A stretch of 64,000 nt of DNA from Alphaproteobacteria bacterium (GTDB lineage: Bacteria; Pseudomonadota; Alphaproteobacteria; SHVZ01), in contig JBGALV010000001.1 in assembly GCA_044223515.1 (NCBI GenBank), forward strand, positions 74,864-138,863. The letters are read 5' to 3'. Shown here piece by piece: positions 1,768 to 57,054 of this stretch; within the stretch, counting starts at the first letter, position 1; each line of letters starts with the position of its first letter. A model generated the notes under the pieces. It saw only the letters and a program-made list of their open reading frames with translations. It was not told the origin of the DNA and made no database searches. The position numbers and the translations under genes are program-made.

Positions 1768-2823
1768 ATGGCCCGTACACGGCTTTCGCGCAGCGATCTC
1801 ACGGGCAAGGTCCAGACCGTCCGCGGCCTGATCGACCCAAGCGAGCTCGGCCAGACCCTGATGCATGAGCACGTGCTCTGGGACCTCCGCACCCCCGAGA
1901 TCAGGGCCAAGAACGACCTCGGCCCGGAGCTCACCTTCAAGAACATCTTCGGCATGAACTACGGCGAGACCTATTCGCCGAGGAACATGCTGTTCGACGA
2001 CGTCGCGATCGCCATCGACGAGCTGCAGATGATGCGCGACGTCGGCGGACAGACCGTGGTCGAGCTGACCTGCGGCGGCATCCGCCCGGATCCCAAGGGT
2101 CTGGCGCAGGTGTCGGAAGGCACCAGCGTCAACATCGTCATGGGCTGCGGCTACTACGTCGAGGAATACCAGGACCCGAAGAACCGCGAGCGCAGTCCCG
2201 ACGACTTCGCCGCCGAGATGGCGGGACAGGTGCTGGAAGGCGCCTGGGGCACCAACGTGCGATCCGGGATCATCGGCGAGATCGGAACCACCACGCCGTG
2301 GGGCGAGCTCGAGCGGACGGTGCTCAAGGGCGCGATCCTGGCCCAGCAGGAGACCGGCGCCTGCCTCAACATCCATCCCGGACGTAACGACGACCTGCCG
2401 CAGGAGATCGCCGAGTTCGTCGCCGCGAACGGCGGCGACACCTCGCGCACGGTCATCAGCCATATCGACCGGACGATCTTCGACGAGGACCGGCTGCTCC
2501 GCCTCGCCGACATCGGGGTCACCGTCGAGTTCGACCTGTTCGGGCTGGAGCAGGCCTTCTACAAGCTGAACACCAACATCGACCTGCCGAACGACGCGGT
2601 CCGCCTCGAGCTTCTCAGGACCCTGATCGACGCCGGCCATCTCGAGCGCATCGTGATCAGCCACGACATCTGCTTCCGCACCCGCCTGGTCAATTTCGGC
2701 GGCCACGGCTATGGGCACATCTTTCGCAACGTCGTGCCGATGATGAAGCGGCGCGAGTACAGCGACGCCGAGATCCAGACGATCCTGGTCGAGAACCCGA
2801 AGCGGCTTCTCACCTTCGCCTGA
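1768..2823 (+). CDS. phosphotriesterase-related protein (PTE-family amidohydrolase)
   Basis: An HEH-containing N-terminus (MHEHVLWD) is typical of the binuclear metal site of the PTE/amidohydrolase family. Length 351 aa. Confidence 0.8.
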   Translation: MARTRLSRSDLTGKVQTVRGLIDPSELGQTLMHEHVLWDLRTPEIRAKNDLGPELTFKNIFGMNYGETYSPRNMLFDDVAIAIDELQMMRDVGGQTVVELTCGGIRPDPKGLAQVSEGTSVNIVMGCGYYVEEYQDPKNRERSPDDFAAEMAGQVLEGAWGTNVRSGIIGEIGTTTPWGELERTVLKGAILAQQETGACLNIHPGRNDDLPQEIAEFVAANGGDTSRTVISHIDRTIFDEDRLLRLADIGVTVEFDLFGLEQAFYKLNTNIDLPNDAVRLELLRTLIDAGHLERIVISHDICFRTRLVNFGGHGYGHIFRNVVPMMKRREYSDAEIQTILVENPKRLLTFA

Positions 2824-3160
2824 GGGCGAGTCGCGTCCGGAAAAGGGCGATCAGAGGGAATTCCCTCAAAAGCGACTAAAAGTAGTGTTCGAAAAATTCG
2901 CGCTTTCCGGCCTTTTCGGCTGGAACCCGATGCGACCTTAAGTATTTGGATACCGCGACACCGCTCTTATTGCTGGTTACCGCATGTTCCTCTTAGAATT
3001 AACCTTGTTTGTGGCTGTAACTCACCTGTTTGGCGACGTTCGCTGGCTGGGCGACCTGAAGCGCGCGTCGTGCTCCGATCTTTCCTGGAAATTTCCATGA
3101 GCCTTGCGGCCGCGCGGCGTGCCGCTCTGGCTTGTAACTTCAGCGTGTGCAGGAGGCCGG

Positions 3161-4042
3161 ATGGCTGAGCGATCGAAGAACCTGGATGACGTGATCCGGT
3201 CGAACCGGAACGGCATCCTCGAAGACTGGCTGCGCCAGCAGACGGCTCAGACCAAGGTCTCGGACGTTGTCAGTGCGGCGGATCTTCGCGACGAATCCAG
3301 CCGCTTCCTCGAGGCCTTCACCGCTGGTCTCGCCGCCAATCAGAGCGAACTCGCCGGCGGTGCGTGGAGCGAGGCGCGCGCCCTGATCGGCTATCTGTCG
3401 CGCTCTCGCGCCAAGGTCGGGCTCACGCCGTCGGAAACCGCGACCTTCGTCTTCTCGCTTAAGCAGGCTCTGTTCGACCGCCTGGTCGCCGTATCCAAGG
3501 ACCCGGGCAGGCTCGCCGCCGATCTCTGGGTCGTCAGCCTGCTCCTCGACAAGCTCGGCCTCTACTCGGTCGAAGTGTTCATGGAGAGCCGGGAGGAGAT
3601 GATCCGGCGCCAGCAGCAGGATCTGCTGGAGCTTTCTACGCCGGTGGTCAAGCTCTGGGACCGCGTGCTGGCGCTGCCGGTCATCGGCACGCTCGACAGC
3701 GCCCGTACCCAGTCGGTGATGGAGGCGCTGCTGCAGGCGATCGTCGACGAGGGCGCGGAGATCGCGATCATCGACATCACCGGCGTGCCGACGGTCGACA
3801 CGCTGGTCGCTCAGCATCTTCTGAAGACCGTATCGGCCGCCCGCCTGATGGGCGCGGATTGCATCATCAGCGGCATCCGCCCGCAGATCGCCCAGACCAT
3901 CGTGCATCTCGGCGTTTCGCTCGACGTGGCGACCAAGGCGACGATGCGCGATGCCTTCGCGCTGGCGCTTCGCCGGATCGGCATGTCGGTGACGACGAGA
4001 AAGGCGCAACCGAGGAACGAAGCCGCTGACGCCAATGGATAG
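3161..4042 (+). CDS. rsbR: RsbR-like stressosome sensor (N-terminal RsbR non-heme-globin-type domain plus C-terminal STAS)
   Basis: The ATG at 3161 is preceded by AGGAGG. The C-terminal segment IIDITGVPTVDTLVAQHLL matches the RsbR STAS region, including the conserved phosphorylatable Thr residues. The N-terminal helical domain resembles RsbRD_N. Confidence 0.8.
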   Translation: MAERSKNLDDVIRSNRNGILEDWLRQQTAQTKVSDVVSAADLRDESSRFLEAFTAGLAANQSELAGGAWSEARALIGYLSRSRAKVGLTPSETATFVFSLKQALFDRLVAVSKDPGRLAADLWVVSLLLDKLGLYSVEVFMESREEMIRRQQQDLLELSTPVVKLWDRVLALPVIGTLDSARTQSVMEALLQAIVDEGAEIAIIDITGVPTVDTLVAQHLLKTVSAARLMGADCIISGIRPQIAQTIVHLGVSLDVATKATMRDAFALALRRIGMSVTTRKAQPRNEAADANG

Positions 4043-4430
4043 GATCCCTATCCTCAAGTTCGGCCGTTCGCTGCTGGTCACCATCCAGGTCGACATGCAC
4101 GACCAGCTGGCGATGACGCTGCAGGACGATCTGACCTCGCGCCTGGTGAAGGAAAGGGCGCGCGGCGTCCTGATCGACATCTCGGCGCTCGAGATCGTCG
4201 ACTCGTTCATGGGGCGCGTGCTGAACAACATCGCCGCCATGGCGAAGATCCTGGACGCGGTCACCGTCGTCGTCGGCATGCGTCCGGCGGTCGCGATCAC
4301 GCTGGTCGAGCTTGGGCTCGACCTCCCGGGCGTCAAGACCGCGCTCAACGTCGAGCGCGGCATGGACCTGATCCGGGCCAGCATCGAGGAAGAATACTCG
4401 GCCGCCGATGTCGACATCGACTCCGACTGA
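4035..4430 (+). CDS. rsbS: RsbS-like STAS-domain stressosome scaffold / anti-sigma-factor antagonist
   Basis: A 131-aa single STAS domain with the conserved ...LEIVDSFMGRVL... Ser motif. It overlaps rsbR by 8 bp. Confidence 0.8.
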   Translation: MDRIPILKFGRSLLVTIQVDMHDQLAMTLQDDLTSRLVKERARGVLIDISALEIVDSFMGRVLNNIAAMAKILDAVTVVVGMRPAVAITLVELGLDLPGVKTALNVERGMDLIRASIEEEYSAADVDIDSD

Positions 4431-4815
4431 GCGCGTCGAGATCCGGACGCCCGAGGACATCGTCCGCGTCCGGCAGCTCGTGCGCACCCGGGCACAGGCC
4501 GCGGGCCTGACGATCGTCGACCAGACCAAGGTCATCACGGCGGCCAGCGAGATCGCGCGCAATACGCTCGACTACGGTGGCGGTGGCGACGTCGAGATCG
4601 AGATGGTGGCCGAGCCGAAGAAGAATGGTGTCCGGCTGACGTTCCGCGATCAGGGGCCGGGAATCCCGGATATCGAGCAGGCGTTGCGCGACAACTTCAC
4701 CACCGGCGGTGGCCTGGGACTGGGGCTCGGCGGCGCCAAGCGGCTGGTCAACGAGTTCAGGATCGAGAGCAAGGTAGGGGCCGGCACGACGATCATGCTG
4801 GCGCGATGGAAATAG
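4408..4815 (+). CDS. rsbT: RsbT-like GHKL serine kinase (anti-sigma regulatory factor)
   Basis: A 135-aa protein with the N-box (ASEIARNTLDYGGGG), G1 (RDQGPGIPD) and G2 (GGGLGLGLGGAKRL) motifs of HATPase_c. It overlaps rsbS. Confidence 0.8.
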   Translation: MSTSTPTERVEIRTPEDIVRVRQLVRTRAQAAGLTIVDQTKVITAASEIARNTLDYGGGGDVEIEMVAEPKKNGVRLTFRDQGPGIPDIEQALRDNFTTGGGLGLGLGGAKRLVNEFRIESKVGAGTTIMLARWK

Positions 4816-5795
4816 TGATCCGCATCGAGCACGACTCCGATGTCGGCGTCGCCAGGCGCTCGGCCCGCGAGGCGGCGGAGTCCGCAGGCCTCGACGAAGA
4901 GGATGCCGGACGCGCCGCCCTGGTGGCGACCGAGGCCGCGACCAACCTGGCGCGGCATGCCAGCTCCGGTGCGTTCTTCGTTCGTCGTCTCGATCCGGCC
5001 GAAGGGCACGGCGTCGAGATGGTGGCGGTCGATCGTGGCCCCGGCATCGCGAACCTCGCGAACTCGATGGTCGACGGCGTCTCGACACGCGGTACGCCGG
5101 GCCAGGGCCTCGGGGCGATGAAGCGCATCGCCGATCTTCTGACCATCGACTCGCGCCCAGGCGAGGGAACCATCGTGGTCGCCCAGGTCCGCAACGGCAG
5201 CGCGGCCGCACCGTTGCCGATGGCGGTCGGCGGGATCGCCGCCGCCATTGCGCCCGACGGATGCGGAGACGCTTTTGCCTTCTCGCCGAGAGTGCGCGGC
5301 GTCGCGGTCATCATGATCGACGGCCTCGGCCATGGCGCCGATGCCGCGGTCGCGGCCGAAGCGGCGGTCGAATGCTTCCATCGGCGCAGCACGGACGACC
5401 TTGTGAATCTCTTTCAGGCGCTCGACCGCGAGCTCAGGCCGACGCGCGGTGCTGCGATCGCCATCGCCCATGTCGACCTGCAGGACAGGGCCGTGCACTT
5501 CATGGGCGTCGGCAACATCTCCGGGATCCTGATCTCGGGCGGCAAGGCGCGGAACATGGTGTCGCACAACGGCATCGTCGGCCACACGATGCGCCGCGTG
5601 CAGCAGTTCGACTATCCGTTCGCCGAAGACCCGACGGTGATCCTGCATTCCGACGGGGTAGGGACCCGCTGGCAGCCGATGGCTCTGATCGAGCGCGGGC
5701 TGACCAACCCCACCGCGATCGCGGCGCAGCTCTGGCGAAGCGACGCGCGCGGCCGCGACGATGCCGGCGTCGTCGTCGTCCGGGGGCGGACATGA
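4806..5795 (+). CDS. fusion protein: N-terminal RsbT/RsbW-like GHKL domain plus C-terminal PP2C (SpoIIE/RsbX-like) phosphatase
   Basis: The N-terminus has E..N..H, DRGPGI and GQGLG motifs, so it is GHKL-like. The C-terminus has IDGLGHGADAA, the PP2C metal-binding motif. It overlaps rsbT by 10 bp and the downstream kinase by ATGA. Confidence 0.75.
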   Translation: MEIVIRIEHDSDVGVARRSAREAAESAGLDEEDAGRAALVATEAATNLARHASSGAFFVRRLDPAEGHGVEMVAVDRGPGIANLANSMVDGVSTRGTPGQGLGAMKRIADLLTIDSRPGEGTIVVAQVRNGSAAAPLPMAVGGIAAAIAPDGCGDAFAFSPRVRGVAVIMIDGLGHGADAAVAAEAAVECFHRRSTDDLVNLFQALDRELRPTRGAAIAIAHVDLQDRAVHFMGVGNISGILISGGKARNMVSHNGIVGHTMRRVQQFDYPFAEDPTVILHSDGVGTRWQPMALIERGLTNPTAIAAQLWRSDARGRDDAGVVVVRGRT

Positions 5796-7874
5796 GCGAG
5801 CTGGTGCTGGCCACTCGCGTCGCCGAAGAGGGCGATGTCGTGCGCGCACGCCAGCAGGCGCGCCGGGTCGCGAGCCTGCTCGGCTTCGAGGGCCAGGATC
5901 AGGTGCGGATCGCGACCGCGGTCTCCGAGACGGCCCGCAGCGCGCTCGAATACGCCCATGGCGGCAGCATCGAGTTCGCGGTGGAGCGGCGAACCAAGCC
6001 GCAGCTTCTGATCGTTTCCGTGACCGATGCCGGGAAGAACGTGCATCCCGACAAGGCCGAGGAGCGGGATCATGGTTTCCTCGGCGCCCGGCGGTTGATG
6101 GACAAGGTCGATGTCGACATGACCGAGGCGGGGACGGTCGTTCGCCTGACCAAGCGCTTCCCCCGGACGGCACCGGCGGTCACCTCCAAGGTGATAGCCA
6201 AGATCTCTGCCGCCGTCGAAGGCGAGGCGAGCAACCCGCTGGAGGAGCTGGCCCGCCAGAACCGCGAGCTGATGCAGTCGCTCTCCGACAACAAGCGTCA
6301 GACCGACGCGGTCCAGCAGCTGAACCAGGAGCTGCAGGAGACCAATCGCGGCGTCGTCGCCCTCTACGCCGAGTTGGACGAGAAGGCGGCGAGCCTGAGG
6401 CGCGCGGACGAGCTCAAGTCGCGCTTCCTTTCCGATATGAGCCATGAGTTCCGGACGCCGCTGAACGCGATCCTGGCGCTTTCCAGCCTGTTGTTGGACG
6501 AGACCGACGGAAGTTTCGACCGAGCAGCGTCGCCAGGTGGTCTATGTCCGCCGGGCCGCCGAGTCGCTGAGCGGACTGGTCAACGACCTTCTCGACCTTG
6601 CCAAGGTCGAGTCGGGGAAGATCGAGATCCACCGCGCGCAGTTCGACGTGGCCGACCTGACCAGTGCGCTTCGCGGCATGTTCCGGCCGCTGGTGATCGG
6701 TGACGTCTCGCTGGTGATCGAGGACCCGGACGGGCTCGCGATCGTCTCGGACGAAGGCAAGCTCTCGCAGATCCTGAGGAACTTTCTCTCGAACGCAGTC
6801 AAGTTCACCGAGCAGGGCGAGATCCGCCTGTGCGTCACGGAGCCCAAGCCCGGCGTCGTCCGGTTCGACGTACGTGATACCGGCATCGGCATCGCGCCTC
6901 AGGATATCGAACGGATCTTCGATGATTTTGTCCAGGTCGACGGGCCGCGCCAGCGCCGTGTCCGCGGCACGGGCCTGGGGCTGCCGCTGTCGAAGAAGCT
7001 TGCCGGGCTCATCGGCGGGCACATCGAGGTGACGAGCGAGCCGGGCAAGGGCTCGACTTTTTCCATGATCCTGCCGGACGGCCTGACCGAGACCCCGGAC
7101 ATCGTGATGGAGCATGCAGCCGAGCTGACGAAGCAGTCGCCGGTTCTGGTGGTCGAGGACGAGCAGGCGGACCTGCTGGTCGCGGTGACCCTGCTGGACG
7201 CGGCGTCGATCCGAAGCCGGCAGGCGCGCACCTTGGCCGAGGCGCGGGCATCGATCGCCGCCGAGCGGCCCGCGGCGATCGTCCTCGACATCCGCTTCGA
7301 CAAGGGCGATGCCTGGACCTTCCTCGAGGAGATCAAGTCGTCGCCGGAGACTGCGGAGATCCCCGTCCTGGTGATGACTGCGACCGACGATGAGGAGCAT
7401 GCGGTCAAGCTGGGTGCTGAAGCATTTGTGAAAAAGCCCGTGGATCGACGCAACCTTGTGCGCTCGCTGCTTCGGCTCTTGAACAGGAAGCCTGCGCTCA
7501 ACGTCCTGCACGTTGACGACGACGAAACCGCCCGCTACGCGGTTCAGCAGATGCTGTTCGGCACCGGCCGGCATCTTCGCCAGGCTGAGAGCGTGGAGCA
7601 GGCGATGGCGTCGATCAGCCGCGATCAGCCGGACGTGGTCCTTCTCGATCTGCACTTTCCGGATAGCGACGGCTATGCGATGCTTTCCCGGCTGCAAAGC
7701 GACCCGGTACTGCGGATTCCAGTCATCATGCTGACGTCGGCCGTCCTCGATGATGCTGACAGACACCGCCTGGCCGGAGCCTTCGCCATTCTTTCCAAGC
7801 GCGATCTCGCCCGCGACACCTTGATCGACTCGATCGACGCCGCCTCGGCCTTCGGACACGGAGGCGCAGCATGA
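5792..7874 (+). CDS. hybrid sensor histidine kinase with an apparent +1 frameshift near 6509 (degenerate GHKL/RsbW-like N-domain, coiled coil, HisKA, HATPase_c, REC, REC)
   Basis: It starts MSELVLATR at 5792, in the frame of ORF 5261..6703. The H-box FLSDMSHEFRTPLNAI lies in frame A. The rest of HisKA plus HATPase_c and two receiver domains lie in ORF 6537..7874, in frame B. The shift occurs between 6506 and 6512. Confidence 0.7.
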
Positions 7875-8905
7875 CCGCGCATCCGGCGATCCTGGTGGTC
7901 GATGACGACGAGGCATCGCGCTACATCAAAACCCGTGTGCTCGAAAGCCAGGGCTTCGACGTCTCCCAGGCGGGAACGGGTGAAAAGGCGCTCGACCGCA
8001 TCGAGGAGAAGACGCCCGACCTGGTCCTGCTGGACGTGAAGCTTCCGGGGATGGATGGGATCGAGGCCTGCCGCATCATCAAGGAGCGGTGGCCGTCCGT
8101 CTTCGTGCTTCATACCTCCGCGGCCTACCGCAAGCCGTCGGACCGCACGCGCGGCCTCGACAGCGGCGCCGACGGCTATCTCGCCGAGCCGGTCGAGCCG
8201 GGCGAGCTCGTCGCCAACGTCAAGTCGCTGCTCCGCATCCGCCAGGTCGAGAACGAGCTGCGGGCGGTGGTTGAGCGCAACCAGGTGCTTCTCCGCGAGG
8301 TCCAGCACCGCACGATGAACAACCTGCAGCTGGTGATCAGCTTCCTCAACCTCGAGTCCCGCGGGCTTTCCGACCAGCATGCGAAGGACCGCATCAAGGC
8401 GGTGATCCAGCGCGTCAGCGCGCTGGCGGCGGTCCACCACCACCTCTACAGCCGGGGCGCGATCGACCGCATCGACTTCGGCTCGTACGTCGCCGACCTG
8501 GTCAAGGACATCGGCAACGCGACGGGAGAGGAGCGCATCGTCTTCCGCACGCAGGCGGATCCGGTATGGATGGAGGCGGATCGCGCCATCCGCCTCGGCC
8601 TCGTGGTCAACGAGCTCGTGACCAACTCGATCAAATACGCCTTTCCCGGCGGGGAAAGCGGCCAGATCAGCCTGAGCCTGCATGCGACGGGCAACGAGGC
8701 GGTACTGACGGTCGAGGACGACGGGCGCGGCTTCGAAGGCAGCAGCTCCACCGGATCCACACGCTCGGGCCTCAGCCTGAGCCAGGCGCTGGCCGAGCAG
8801 TCGGATGCCGAGCTGATCCGGGACGAGACGACGCGCGGCACACGCTGGCGGATCGTTCTCCACAGCCCCGAGGCGCGCCGCGCCGTAGCGCGCGAGGGCC
8901 GCTAG
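7871..8905 (+). CDS. response-regulator receiver fused to a HisKA_2-type histidine kinase (REC-HisKA_2-HATPase)
   Basis: An N-terminal REC domain (ILVVDDDE...DLVLLDVKLPGMDG), then HRTMNNLQLVISFLNL (HisKA_2 H-box), then an ATPase domain with NELVTNSIKYA. There is an ATGA overlap with the upstream kinase. Confidence 0.8.
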   Translation: MTAHPAILVVDDDEASRYIKTRVLESQGFDVSQAGTGEKALDRIEEKTPDLVLLDVKLPGMDGIEACRIIKERWPSVFVLHTSAAYRKPSDRTRGLDSGADGYLAEPVEPGELVANVKSLLRIRQVENELRAVVERNQVLLREVQHRTMNNLQLVISFLNLESRGLSDQHAKDRIKAVIQRVSALAAVHHHLYSRGAIDRIDFGSYVADLVKDIGNATGEERIVFRTQADPVWMEADRAIRLGLVVNELVTNSIKYAFPGGESGQISLSLHATGNEAVLTVEDDGRGFEGSSSTGSTRSGLSLSQALAEQSDAELIRDETTRGTRWRIVLHSPEARRAVAREGR

Positions 8906-8913
8906 GCATCGGC

Positions 8914-8943
8914 CCCCCTCTCCCTGCGCAGCAGGGGGAGGGG
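8914..8943. terminator. GC-rich hairpin between convergent genes (putative bidirectional terminator)
   Basis: The arms cccctctccctgc and gcagggggagggg are a near-perfect inverted repeat. The hairpin lies between the kinase stop at 8905 and the fadD stop at 8962. There is no clear U-tract. Confidence 0.3.
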
Positions 8944-8961
8944 ATCCGAGGAGTGCGCAGC

Positions 8962-10714
8962 CTACGCCTTCTGGACCTTCGCCGCTTCCTCGGCGACGAG
9001 TTCCTTCTTCGACAGTTTCCCGATCAGCGTTTTCGGCAGGGCGGCGCGGAATTCGATCTCGCGCGGCATCTCGATCGGATTGAGCTTGTCCTTGAGGAAC
9101 TGGGTCAGCTCCTCCGAGGTGAGCGTCTTGCCGGCCTGCAGCTTGACGAAGGCCTTCGGGCTCTGGCCGCGATAGCTGTCGTCGACGCCGATCACCGTGC
9201 ATTCCTCGACCGCGGGATGCTGGTAGACCGCTTCCTCGACGACGCGCGGGTAGACGTTGAAGCCGCTGCAGATGATCAGGTCCTTCATCCGGTCGACGAT
9301 GAAGAAGTAGCCGTCGTCGTCCATCATCGCGATGTCGCCGGTCCTGAGCAGGCCGTCGACCATCTGCTGCTGGGTCGCCTCGGGCCGTCCCCAGTATCCG
9401 GCCATCACCTGCGGCCCGCCGATGCAGATCTCGCCACGCTCGCCCTTCGGCACCACCTTGGTCGCATCCGCGATGTCGCGCAGCTCGACCCGGGTCAGCG
9501 GCAGCGGCAGGCCGATCGATCCCGCCTTGTTGACGCCGCCCAGCGGATTGCAGTGGGTCACGGGCGAGCTCTCGGTCAGGCCATAGCCCTCGACCAGATG
9601 GCAGCCGGTCACCTGCTCGAAGCGCTGCTTGACCTCGAGCGGCAGCGGGGCGCCGCCGGAGATGCAGTTCCGGATCGAGGAGAGGTTGCGCGGCTGCTTG
9701 GCGACCGCGCCGTTGAAGGCCGTGTACATGGTGGGCACGCCCGCCATGAAGGTCGGCTTTTTGGTCTCGATCACCTTCAGCGCCGCCTCGACCTCGAAGC
9801 GCGGCAGCATCACGATCTCGGCCCCGACCGACAGCATCTGGTTCTGGATCACCGTCATCGCGAAAACGTGGAAGAACGGCAGCACGCCGAGGACGCGCTC
9901 CTTGCCGAACTCGAAGGTGTGGAACCAGCGCCGGCACTGGATCGCGTTGGCGTAGAGATTGGCGTGGGTCAGCATCGCCCCCTTGGGGATGCCGGTCGTG
10001 CCGCCGGTGTACTGCAGCACCGCCGTGGTCTTGACCGGGTCGATCGCGACCGCTCGGTAACGGCCGTCGTTGGCCGTGAGCTCGGCATAGCGCGGATGCG
10101 CCTGGTCGCGCGGCGGCGTCGCAAGGTCCTTGCGGCGGACGATCGGGAACAGCAGCTTCTTGATGAACGGCAGCGCATCCGCCATCGAGCAGAGGACGAT
10201 CGTCTTCAGCGGCGTCGTCCCCAGCATCGGCTGGAGCTTGGCATAGAGGGCCTGCAGGTCGAGCGTGACCATCACCTCGGTGCCGGAGTCCCGGATCTGC
10301 TGCTCGATCTCCTTGGCGACGTAGAGCGGGTTGAAATTGACGACGATGCCGCCCGCCTTGAGGATCCCGAAATAGGCGATGATGAAGTAGGGGCAGTTCG
10401 GCAGGAACAGGCCCACACGGTCGCCGGGCTTCAAGCCCCGGTCCTGCAGCCCCTTGGCGAAGCGGTCGACCTGGGCTGAGAGCTCGCCATAGGTCGTCTT
10501 CCTGTCGAGGAAGTCGATCGCGCTCTGGCCGGGGATCCGCGAGGAAGTCGATCGCGTTCTGGGCGGGGATCCGCCTGACCGGCTCGTCGAGCAGCTCGTA
10601 GAGCGGCTTCGGATCGATCGGGTCGTGCCAGTCGACCGAGGCCGGATAGAGGGCCGAGTAGTCGCGGCCGCCGCTTGCGATCGACAATGCCCCAGTTGTC
10701 CCGGCGCCAGTCAT
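8962..10714 (-). pseudogene. fadD: long-chain-fatty-acid--CoA ligase (FadD family) disrupted by a 34-bp tandem duplication frameshift
   Basis: ORF 8962..10434 encodes the AMP-binding core (TGGTTGIPKGAML, etc.). The N-terminus (MTGAGTT...YELLDEPVRRIPAQNAIDFL) is in another frame upstream. Removing one copy of the duplicated 34-mer at 10507-10574 restores a continuous FadD of about 572 aa. The ATG at 10714 is preceded by GGGAGG. Confidence 0.75.
10507..10574. repeat. imperfect 34-bp tandem direct repeat (2 copies, 2 mismatches) inside fadD
   Basis: Copy 1 (10507-10540) is gaggaagtcgatcgcgctctggccggggatccgc. Copy 2 (10541-10574) is gaggaagtcgatcgcgttctgggcggggatccgc. Confidence 0.9.
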
Positions 10715-46679: not shown

Positions 46680-46960
46680 GCTAGCTTCCCCGCCGATGGT
46701 TCCCTTCGGGGATTCAATGGGAACGCGGTGAGGCTTCGGCCGACTCCGCGGCTGCCCCCGCAACTGTAAGCGGCGAGCCTTGCGCCCTCGTGCCACTGGG
46801 AAACCCGGGAAGGCGGCGCAAGGCTAGGACCCGCGAGCCAGGAGACCTGCCATCGCCGTGGTCATGCGCGAGAACATCGGGCGGGGTGCCCTGATGGAGA
46901 CCGGAGCCCTCTGAAGTTGGGCGCCAGCCTCGGTTCGCGGTGACGGATCACGTTCGCCGC
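46680..46960 (+). ncRNA. cobalamin (B12) riboswitch with expression platform, upstream of the TonB-dependent receptor
   Basis: It has the conserved core GGTGAG...CCGCGGCTGCCCCCGCAACTGTAAGCGG...GTGCCACTGGGAA...GGGAAGGCG, which includes the B12 box GCCACTG. Confidence 0.8.
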
Positions 46961-56769: not shown

Positions 56770-57030
56770 GAGCTTGCCGGGTCGTCGTGACAACCGGCTC
56801 GCTACCGTCAGGGCACCCCGCCCGTCGGCTTCGCTAAGTGACCACGTCGGACGGCAGGTTTCCTGGCTCGCGGCTCTCTGCCTTGCCGTCGCCTTCCCGG
56901 GCCGAGGAAGCCCAGTGGCACGATGACGGAAGACTCGCCGCTCACAGTTGCGGGGGCAGCCGCGGATCGAAGCGATGGCTCCTACCGCGTTCCCTTTTGA
57001 TCCCCTTTCAGGGAACCGTCCGGACCGGAT
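56770..57030 (-). ncRNA. cobalamin (B12) riboswitch (second copy, minus strand) upstream of the BtuF-like SBP gene
   Basis: The reverse complement contains ...GGGAACGCGGTAGG...CCGCGGCTGCCCCCGCAACTGTGAGCGG...GTGCCACTGGG...GGGAAGGCG. The platform shares long identical stretches with the riboswitch at 46.7 kb (GGGCGGGGTGCCCTGA, CGGTTCGCGGTGACG). Confidence 0.75.
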
Positions 57031-57054
57031 GCTACGCGCCCGCGCCGGGCCGGG

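Follow-up and report, generated by a model that had tools for sequence, protein, structure and literature searches.

The gene at positions 4806-5795 on the plus strand of the window (the whole stretch of 64,000 nucleotides that was analysed) encodes a 329-amino-acid protein in which a GHKL-type ATP-binding domain lies N-terminal to an RsbX-type PP2C phosphatase, directly after rsbR-rsbS-rsbT, with the kinase and phosphatase motifs of both domains intact. This fusion is no one-off, but has a set place in a conserved stress-sensor cassette of six genes. With a little less than even confidence, we read it from its sequence as a stressosome feedback phosphatase joined to a second, ATP-dependent RsbT paralogue, an arrangement that would make it an analogue of SypE.

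The preliminary description of this DNA had reported the ORF, the overlap of its stop codon with the next start (ATGA) and a set of GHKL and PP2C motifs, and all of these were found in the window sequence as claimed. The ATG at 4806 overlaps the rsbT stop codon (TAG, 4813-4815), and the TGA at 5793-5795 overlaps the ATG of the following gene (5792-5794). An alternative GTG at 4815, three residues downstream of the ATG, may be the true start, since homologues at 63-72% identity begin with 'MIR...'. The motifs, all on the plus strand, are the N-box ATEAATNLARH (residues 41-51, nt 4926-4958), the G1 box DRGPGI (residues 76-81, nt 5031-5048), the G2 box GQGLGAMKR (residues 99-107, nt 5100-5126) and, in the PP2C domain, DGLGHG (residues 172-177, nt 5319-5336). 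Both domain assignments were borne out by Pfam profile searches, in which HATPase_c_2 (PF13581) matched residues 12-126 (4839..5183, plus strand) with an E-value of 4e-13 and 49.9 bits against a cut-off of 27.4, and SpoIIE (PF07228) matched residues 165-285 with an E-value of 4.4e-10 and 40.3 bits against a cut-off of 25. The same searches gave no Response_reg, PAS or STAS match in the protein. The GHKL domain combines its profile match with a Bergerat-type fold and carries E43 and N47 in the N-box, D76-G78-G80 in G1, a lid motif D90-G91-x-S93-T94, G99-G101-G103-R107 in G2, and G121. Structure prediction, which had been proposed as a check, yielded a single compact two-domain unit in AlphaFold2 with a pTM of 0.92.

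The C-terminal domain (5256..5783, plus strand; residues 151-326) matched Moorella RsbX (3zt9) with an E-value of 4.5e-18 and Bacillus subtilis RsbX (3w40) with an E-value of 6.8e-7 in PDB sequence searches, and RsbX structures were its best matches in both sequence and fold. Its conserved residues are G154-D155, D172-G-x-G-H-G177, T213-R-G215, G234-x-G236-N237 (the 'GN' signature at PP2C motif 5, as defined in PMC4524716), V252-S-H-x-G256, D283-G284 and R317-D318-D319. The RsbX proteins of B. subtilis and Moorella thermoacetica (MtX) share with the fusion this 'GN' group II signature and also the genomic place, all of them following rsbR-rsbS-rsbT directly, which is the order of the widespread rsbRSTX module (PMC9237108). 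However, published RsbX is a single-domain protein of ~200 amino acids, and Heinz et al. 2022 call the RsbX in their surveyed modules a 'single domain PP2C type phosphatase', whereas the 329-residue fusion has an additional ATP-binding RsbT paralogue of ~130 amino acids at its N-terminus. We also considered an RsbU-like activator phosphatase and rejected it, because the best matches were to RsbX and not to RsbU- or RsbP-type structures, and because the cassette contains no RsbU_N domain and no RsbV, RsbW or sigma factor.

In the Bacillus paradigm RsbX is a stand-alone PP2C, and only against that paradigm does the fusion deserve the word 'unusual', which had been applied to it, as the two-domain family comprises 935 clusters at 50% identity (E<=1e-30) and has relatives in 380 species-representative genomes. 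The GHKL-RsbX fusion is thus common, not rare. Among the scored candidates, 2280 matched the fusion at E<=1e-5; the best 120 of these 2280 were all 314-359 amino acids long with query coverage of 88-100%, and precomputed Pfam annotation assigned both domains to 116 of them and PF13581 only to the other four. The best 150 library matches all aligned end to end. NCBI names this architecture 'ATP-binding SpoIIE family protein phosphatase' (e.g. HTI85009.1 and WP_331941786.1), and three proteins bearing the name (P0011, P0067 and P0084) were 44-45% identical with the fusion over 99% of the query (E-values 1.6e-80 to 7.1e-71). A search for exact copies of the window protein gave a 1.8-kb Logan contig and nothing else. 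Open-access full-text searches retrieved no paper describing the fusion, which Pane-Farre et al. 2005 (doi 10.1159/000088837) and a 2017 stressosome chapter may mention; the phrase 'ATP-binding SpoIIE family' was absent from the open-access papers searched in full text, no functional study of the fusion was found in the open-access literature, and a search of the photoglobin paper and of the stressosome and PhyR literature gave nothing relevant to it.

The cassette runs, all on the plus strand, from RsbR through RsbS, RsbT and the fusion to a histidine kinase with an RsbT-like N-terminus and a receiver-histidine kinase. All 80 loci that were fetched with sufficient flanking sequence, from at least eight phyla including Proteobacteria, Acidobacteriota, Planctomycetota, Actinomycetota and Cyanobacteria, showed the order from RsbR to the first kinase, and a gene of the receiver-histidine kinase type followed the hybrid kinase in nearly all of them. 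Among cultured bacteria, the carriers include Singulisphaera acidiphila DSM 18658, Massilia spp. and Methylobacterium iners. Independent precomputed Pfam labels confirmed the order in locus L082 and did so only partly in locus L083, which has fragmentary gene calls at rsbS and at the kinase. The RsbR-like stressosome sensor or co-antagonist (3161..4042) has RsbRD_N (E 9.6e-24) and STAS (E 1e-14) matches in Pfam; its ORF is listed from a TTG at 3104, and the likely start is the ATG at 3161 (MAERSK...), which gives 293 amino acids, the length of the orthologue in locus L002. Its stop is overlapped by the start of the RsbS-like single-STAS scaffold or antagonist (4035..4430; STAS E 1e-7), in which Ser57 of a V-D-S-F motif, which we take to be the position of B. 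subtilis RsbS S59, is invariant in 78 of 78 orthologues. RsbR Ser180 and Thr214, which like RsbS Ser57 are predicted phospho-acceptors and presumably align with B. subtilis RsbRA T171 and T205, are both retained in all orthologues but one (76 of 77), which has a gap. The RsbT-like GHKL serine kinase (4408..4815; 135 amino acids; HATPase_c E 1.7e-14, HATPase_c_2 E 4.6e-11) has N, G1 and G2 box residues that 79-80 of 80 orthologues retain; the exception is the third G2 position, where Ser and Gly alternate.

The last gene of the cassette (7871..8905), whose start overlaps the preceding stop, encodes a 344-amino-acid receiver and HisKA_2/HWE-type histidine kinase with Pfam matches to Response_reg (E 3.3e-26), HisKA_2 (E 4.9e-19) and HATPase_c (E 2.5e-11), and its match to PhyK (NF051872) is weak and sub-threshold, at 108.6 bits against a cut-off of 750 (E 3e-31). 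The cassette encodes no sigma factor, and no RsbV, RsbW or RsbU_N domain was detected in it with Pfam. A scan of positions 2700-9300 gave no promoter-like site, and terminator-like sites occurred there at the chance rate.

The hybrid histidine kinase that follows the fusion (5792..7874) comprises, by Pfam, an RsbT-like GHKL domain, a linker of ~90 residues without a domain match, HisKA, HATPase_c and two receivers. In the window it is broken by a 2-nt deletion near 6512-6514, as seen from blastn gaps and the raw sequences, and reads as two ORFs (5792-6703 and 6537-7874), whereas the orthologue in locus L002 is intact at 694 amino acids. The ATP motifs of its GHKL domain are degenerate in the window, with Ser in place of the N-box Asn. 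Such decay affects about a quarter of the RsbT-like domains of the downstream kinases, the equivalent of N47 being lost in 21 of 78 orthologues and that of D76 in 15 of 78. These kinase-borne domains served as an internal control for relaxed constraint on ATP binding.

In the fusion, no change occurs among 81 orthologues, which have a mean identity of ~49%, at E43, N47, D76, G80, G99, G101, G103, R107 or G121, and G78, kept in 79 of the 81, is the sole ATP-motif position that varies. The PP2C domain is attached in 81 of 81, so the protein is not a free-standing GHKL kinase of ~135-160 amino acids like RsbT and the RsbW/SpoIIAB kinases, with which it shares the N, G1 and G2 boxes. Mean pairwise identity is 49% and 50% for the two domains, indicating an equal evolutionary rate, and the spacing between G121 and G154 is 30-41 residues in all 81. 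In the PP2C domain, D155, D172, D283, D318, D319 and G236-N237 are invariant in the homologue alignment, and most of them are also invariant in the 81 orthologues; alignment with 3zt9 and 3w40 suggests that the individual Asp residues are metal sites.

Within the window, the N-terminal domain is 29% identical with RsbT (E 6e-12) and shares with it the lid motif D90-G91-x-S/T-T; judged by sequence, it is specifically an RsbT paralogue. It is also the most divergent of the three GHKL domains of the cassette, with group-mean identities of 29% to RsbT and 24% to the kinase-borne domain, and it has no significant BLASTP match to the kinase-borne domain of the window. Neighbour-joining, performed with no outgroups or support values, placed it in a clade of its own, apart from RsbT and the kinase-borne domain. 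R17 is kept in all three paralogues; we take it to align with R20 of SpoIIAB, a residue needed for binding to the STAS protein SpoIIAA. The helix-2 surface residues of the fused domain differ from those of RsbT, so that the two may not have the same STAS surface as partner.

Under the reading that we tentatively favour, the PP2C domain of the fusion would strip the phosphates that RsbT is expected to place on the STAS domains (RsbS Ser57 and RsbR Ser180/Thr214), and the fused GHKL domain would bind the same STAS partners in a nucleotide-dependent manner and would most likely also transfer phosphate. Such an antagonistic kinase/phosphatase pair would set the phosphorylation state of the STAS core, beyond resetting it alone. 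The invariant ATP-binding residues favour a nucleotide-dependent or catalytic role for the domain, although motif conservation is a sign of constraint on ATP binding and not proof of phosphotransfer. These conservation data agree equally with a role in docking or regulation that depends on ATP, because SpoIIAB-type proteins tune STAS binding by nucleotide state without net catalysis. A kinase and a phosphatase acting unregulated on one substrate would, moreover, form a futile cycle, and a second kinase is not obviously needed where RsbT already supplies one.

That one polypeptide might both phosphorylate and dephosphorylate STAS partners had been raised in the preliminary description, and it is not a new concept, as SypE provides a precedent (PMC3610818). 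SypE of Vibrio fischeri carries an HPK-like domain with serine kinase activity at its N-terminus and a PP2C domain at its C-terminus, both acting on the STAS protein SypA (PMC3610818), and the Asn of the N-box is required for it to act as a kinase (PMC3610818; PMC12826045). By architecture as described, not by sequence homology, the fusion is probably a receiver-less analogue of it: both have an N-terminal HPK-like/RsbW-like serine kinase domain of ~140 amino acids, the N-box Asn, a C-terminal PP2C domain and STAS partners in the same locus, RsbS and RsbR being encoded immediately upstream of the fusion as putative substrates. However, the partner of SypE is the lone SypA and that of the fusion would be an RsbR/RsbS pair of stressosome type, which comes with an RsbT of its own. 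In addition, a receiver (REC) domain lies at the centre of SypE and determines which of its activities prevails, whereas the fusion has no receiver and only 30-41 residues between G121 and G154, with no evident switch, so that any activity switch must differ from that of SypE.

It is also possible, although we lean against it, that the fused GHKL domain lacks catalysis and serves in docking or regulation as a sensor of nucleotide, the protein being a targeted phosphatase only, without phosphotransfer; the domain would bind the STAS core, perhaps in competition with RsbT, deliver the RsbX domain and couple its access to ATP/ADP. RsbT-family domains do bind STAS partners, the compact AlphaFold2 model and the short, near-constant linker suggest a rigid two-domain unit, the kinase activity of the cassette already comes from RsbT, and no futile cycle would arise. 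In its ADP-bound form, SpoIIAB is held in a stable complex with the STAS protein that it binds, and conservation of an ATP site can therefore reflect control of binding. The internal control points the other way, as the kinase-borne domain shows that N47, D76 and the G2 box are dispensable for a docking-type role, whereas none is lost in the 81 fusion orthologues, and this retention of ATP motifs beside their decay in the kinase argues against a pure docking role. A kinase-dead RsbT, too, reportedly still binds and activates its target, according to the title of Kang et al. 1998, and docking alone would thus not require an intact ATP site. SypE's N-terminal domain, for its part, is a working kinase (PMC3610818).

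A pairing on the output side, in which the fused domain joins with RsbT or with the N-terminus of the hybrid kinase and not with the STAS proteins, so that RsbT is sequestered or the kinase gated and the PP2C domain controlled by the pairing, appears unlikely to us. The cassette invariably contains three RsbT-family domains and, wherever the fusion is found, a GHKL-headed kinase is found with it, the ATGA translational coupling of the two genes suggests a matched stoichiometry, and SpoIIAB/RsbW-type GHKL proteins are dimers; yet the fused domain is the most divergent of the three and lacks a significant BLASTP match to the window kinase domain, the invariant ATP site would be left unexplained, and the heterodimers are purely hypothetical. 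That separate genes were joined by an error of sequencing, assembly or ORF calling is scarcely credible. The 2-nt frameshift in the adjoining histidine kinase does indicate that the assembly or the locus is not flawless, but each of the 80 related loci, which come from independent assemblies and in part from complete genomes such as Singulisphaera acidiphila NC_019892, has a single ORF of ~330 amino acids, the best 150 library matches run from end to end and the model forms one compact unit. We rejected such an artefact on these comparative data.

Stressosomes are widespread, and their signalling outside the Bacillus sigma-B pathway is largely obscure. With RsbT-like domains on both a feedback phosphatase and an output histidine kinase, this cassette offers testable hypotheses on recruitment and feedback. 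It is conceivable, if doubtful, that the cassette represents a distinct stressosome type built on three RsbT paralogues and on RsbT mimicry, with free RsbT as its switch kinase, an ATP-dependent RsbT-like domain as the carrier of the feedback phosphatase and a further RsbT-like domain, often short of ATP-binding residues, as the carrier of the output histidine kinase. By mimicking RsbT, the enzyme for resetting and the two-component output alike would then be recruited to, or released from, the STAS core. If so, there would be a direct physical route from stressosome to phosphorelay without an RsbU_N domain. Heinz et al. 2022 noted that most downstream proteins lack RsbU_N, the domain that RsbT is known to bind, and could neither detect an RsbT-kinase interaction in Vibrio nor establish such a link from stressosome to phosphorelay there. 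An active kinase/phosphatase pair in the fusion would amount to the SypE design reduced to a minimum, with no receiver, and would be a natural example of an enzyme whose two antagonistic activities work on a megadalton signalling hub, whereas a GHKL domain that only docks would make the protein a modest variation on RsbX.

Two further proteins combine kinase and PP2C domains in other arrangements. OsaC of Streptomyces coelicolor, to which we liken the fusion by description only, contains an RsbW-like kinase and a PP2C domain in one protein and returns sigma-B activity to baseline after stress; it carries PAS and GAF domains between the two and belongs to a sigma-factor pathway. Rv1364c of Mycobacterium tuberculosis (PDB 3ke6) has the order PAS-PP2C-RsbW kinase-STAS, opposite to that of the fusion, in which the kinase domain precedes PP2C and neither PAS nor STAS is present. 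Fold searches aligned ~197-224 positions of 3ke6 against the 329 residues of the fusion, well below the full length, from which we presume that the two domains are placed differently relative to each other in Rv1364c.

The gene for the 329-residue GHKL-PP2C fusion protein (4806–5795, + strand) stands fourth in a row of six + strand genes, which are tightly packed and for the most part overlap. It is preceded by genes encoding an RsbR-like protein with RsbRD_N and STAS domains (3161–4042), an RsbS-like STAS protein (4035–4430) and an RsbT-like GHKL protein (4408–4815), and is followed by a hybrid histidine kinase (5792–7874), consisting of HATPase_c_2, a ~90-residue linker lacking any domain match, HisKA, HATPase_c and two receivers, and by the last gene of the cassette, which encodes a receiver-HisKA_2/HWE kinase (7871–8905). 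Given this gene content, and as no sigma factor, RsbV, RsbW or RsbU is among the six genes, the cassette is an rsbRSTX module whose output is of the two-component type. Heinz et al. 2022 (PMC9237108) described arrangements of this general sort and state that RsbX is a single-domain PP2C in the modules surveyed there.

With ATG 4806 as its start, the fusion gene overlaps the 3′ end of the RsbT gene by 10 nt, and its stop (TGA, 5793–5795) does overlap the start of the downstream kinase (ATG, 5792–5794), as had been noted from the sequence. The N-box, G1, G2 and PP2C metal motifs named in the preliminary description were likewise all found, at residues 41–51, 76–81, 99–107 and 172–177. Pfam assigned residues 12–126 to HATPase_c_2 (E 4e-13) and residues 165–285 to SpoIIE (E 4.4e-10), both over the curated cut-offs, and in a PDB sequence search residues 151–326 matched 3zt9, the RsbX homologue of Moorella (E 4.5e-18), and 3w40, the RsbX of B. 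subtilis (E 6.8e-7). These matches therefore uphold both the GHKL fold proposed for residues 1–130 and the PP2C fold proposed for residues 160–329. NCBIfam gave only sub-threshold likeness to anti-sigma kinases of the RsbA/SpoIIAB type. In every testable respect bar the single-domain state, the C-terminal domain has the properties of an RsbX-type PP2C, with the conserved PP2C motifs intact, and the N-terminal domain, bar the free-standing state, has those of the RsbT/RsbW-type kinases. An alternative start, GTG 4815, would reduce the overlap with rsbT to 1 nt (TAGTG) and may be the true one, because several homologues (63–72% identity) begin at this position, three residues after ATG 4806; the choice is immaterial to the finding. 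The PP2C domain also carries a V-S-H-x-G-x-x-G-H motif (residues 252–260, 5559–5585), of which V252, S253, H254, G256, G259 and H260 are kept across 81 orthologues and which pairwise alignments do not match in the single-domain RsbX structures 3zt9 and 3w40; it might form a family-specific substrate or inter-domain contact.

The fusion had been called unusual, which holds against Bacillus and the published descriptions that we read, but not in the databases. Among the candidates that it scored, a word-indexed search returned 2280 proteins matching at E≤1e-5; the top 120 of these were 314–359 residues long with 88–100% query coverage, and precomputed annotation gave both PF13581 and PF07228 in 116 of them and PF13581 only in the other four. 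In an exhaustive cluster search, 935 clusters (50% identity) matched at E≤1e-30, with end-to-end matches throughout the top 150, and one peptide pattern retrieved relatives from 380 species-representative genomes. Sources that name these proteins call them ‘ATP-binding SpoIIE family protein phosphatase’ or ‘anti-sigma regulatory factor (Ser/Thr protein kinase)’. It follows that this architecture is common and already familiar to annotation pipelines. We found no experimental or descriptive account of the family in the searchable literature, key stressosome reviews lying outside that reach. By itself the fusion gene is ordinary in databases, and it is the conserved cassette with its three paralogues that offers a concrete route into the question of how stressosomes communicate with two-component systems.

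We called ORFs in 80 related loci from Alpha-, Beta- and Gammaproteobacteria, Acidobacteriota, Gemmatimonadota, Planctomycetota, Actinomycetota and Cyanobacteria and labelled them by phmmer with the window proteins as queries. Wherever the contig was long enough, the order RsbR, RsbS, RsbT, fusion, GHKL-headed kinase was constant, with a receiver-kinase gene next in nearly all loci; the fusion is thus a fixed companion of RsbR, RsbS, RsbT and the GHKL-headed kinase. Two extra loci with precomputed Pfam labels served as an independent check: L082 has the full cassette, and in L083 RsbR, RsbT and the fusion agree, the gene calls near rsbS and the kinase being fragmentary. The nearest relatives of the locus are from uncultured Alphaproteobacteria (L002 and L003, 90 and 87% amino acid identity). 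The residues predicted to accept phosphate are conserved, Ser57 of RsbS in 78/78 and RsbR Ser180 and Thr214 in 76/77; we take these to be the equivalents of B. subtilis S59, T171 and T205 respectively.

We aligned three sets of GHKL domains from all loci, those of RsbT (T), of the fusion (X) and of the hybrid kinase's N-terminus (K). In a neighbour-joining tree that has neither outgroups nor support values they form three clean clades, with mean between-group identities of 29% (T–X), 33% (T–K) and 24% (X–K). The fusion is therefore old, and X is a separate paralogue and no recent copy of RsbT. In the fusion proteins the GHKL domain is as well conserved as the PP2C domain (mean pairwise identity 49 and 50%), and the spacer from G121 to G154 is short and nearly constant (30–41 residues). 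X and RsbT have the lid motif D90-G91-x-S/T-T in common; on the helix-2 surface X differs from RsbT, whose residues are found in K. The ATP-binding residues are invariant or nearly so in T and X: in X, E43, N47, D76, G80, G99, G101, G103, R107 and G121 are present in 81/81 and G78 in 79/81. The fusion's N-terminal domain is an RsbT-type GHKL whose ATP site is strictly constrained. In K the ATP-binding residues are eroded, N47 being retained in 57/78 and D76 in 63/78, and the K domain in the window has Ser for the N-box Asn and degenerate G1 and G2 boxes. T, X and K share an invariant R17, which presumably aligns with R20 of SpoIIAB, a residue needed to bind SpoIIAA.

By analogy with RsbX, the PP2C domain would remove phosphate from RsbS~P and RsbR~P, and the GHKL domain, with R17 kept in all three paralogues, would engage STAS domains. 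The preliminary description had proposed that it either phosphorylates these partners or serves for docking. If docking were its sole role, the ATP site should be dispensable: kinase-dead RsbT of B. subtilis still activates its partner, according to the title of Kang et al. 1998, so binding alone should not require it. K can lose the site within the same cassette, whereas X retains it across the phyla sampled, all but G78 in two orthologues, and this contrast is the main argument against a purely docking domain. A docking or regulatory module that depends on ATP would be compatible with such retention, and we regard it as possible, although somewhat less probable than an antagonistic kinase/phosphatase that has the STAS core as its target; that the domain pairs with RsbT or with the N-terminal domain of the kinase seems unlikely.

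A precedent for the antagonistic enzyme is SypE of V. fischeri, in which an N-terminal HPK-like Ser kinase, whose function requires the N-box Asn, and a C-terminal PP2C share the STAS protein SypA as their target (PMC3610818; PMC12826045). Except for the receiver domain of SypE the architecture is that of the fusion, whereas Rv1364c, having the opposite domain order, is unmatched. On the basis of the X–K contrast, kinase-dead RsbT and this precedent, we tentatively favour the SypE-like model, at slightly less than even odds; its main weakness is that the fusion has no receiver domain or other visible activity switch. The fusion can be described as an RsbX that carries its own RsbT paralogue or, just as well, as a SypE lacking the receiver, and is not categorically new.

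The output histidine kinase opens with its own RsbT-like GHKL domain (5792–6166, + strand), as do the kinases of the related loci L002–L081. About a quarter of orthologues show erosion of its ATP-binding motifs, with the RsbT-specific helix-2 residues retained, and it looks like an RsbT mimic for protein binding; its presence on the output kinase suggests a direct link from stressosome to kinase. In the window this gene is frameshifted by a 2-nt deletion near 6512–6514 (6505–6520, GGAAGTTTCGACC against GGAAAGCTTTCGACC in the 86%-identical L002 orthologue, an intact 694-residue ORF), which splits it into ORFs 5792–6703 and 6537–7874 and reflects either a genuine pseudogene or a mistake in the assembly. 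The kinase also lies in two or more ORFs in L082 (7997–10137, a 455-residue kinase and a separate 271-residue receiver protein), L069, L070 and L060, so separation of the kinase core from the receivers may occur naturally in some lineages and not always be an error. The last gene of the cassette (7871–8905) weakly resembles PhyK, the general stress response kinase of Alphaproteobacteria, below threshold (NF051872, E 3e-31, 108.6 bits against a cut-off of 750), and a link from the stressosome to the PhyR pathway through this kinase is conceivable. Elsewhere, no tRNA genes were found in the 64-kb window, which contains two full-length cobalamin riboswitches (RF00174; 124.8 and 128.8 bits) on opposite strands ~10 kb apart, at 46680–46868 (+) and 56836–57035 (−).
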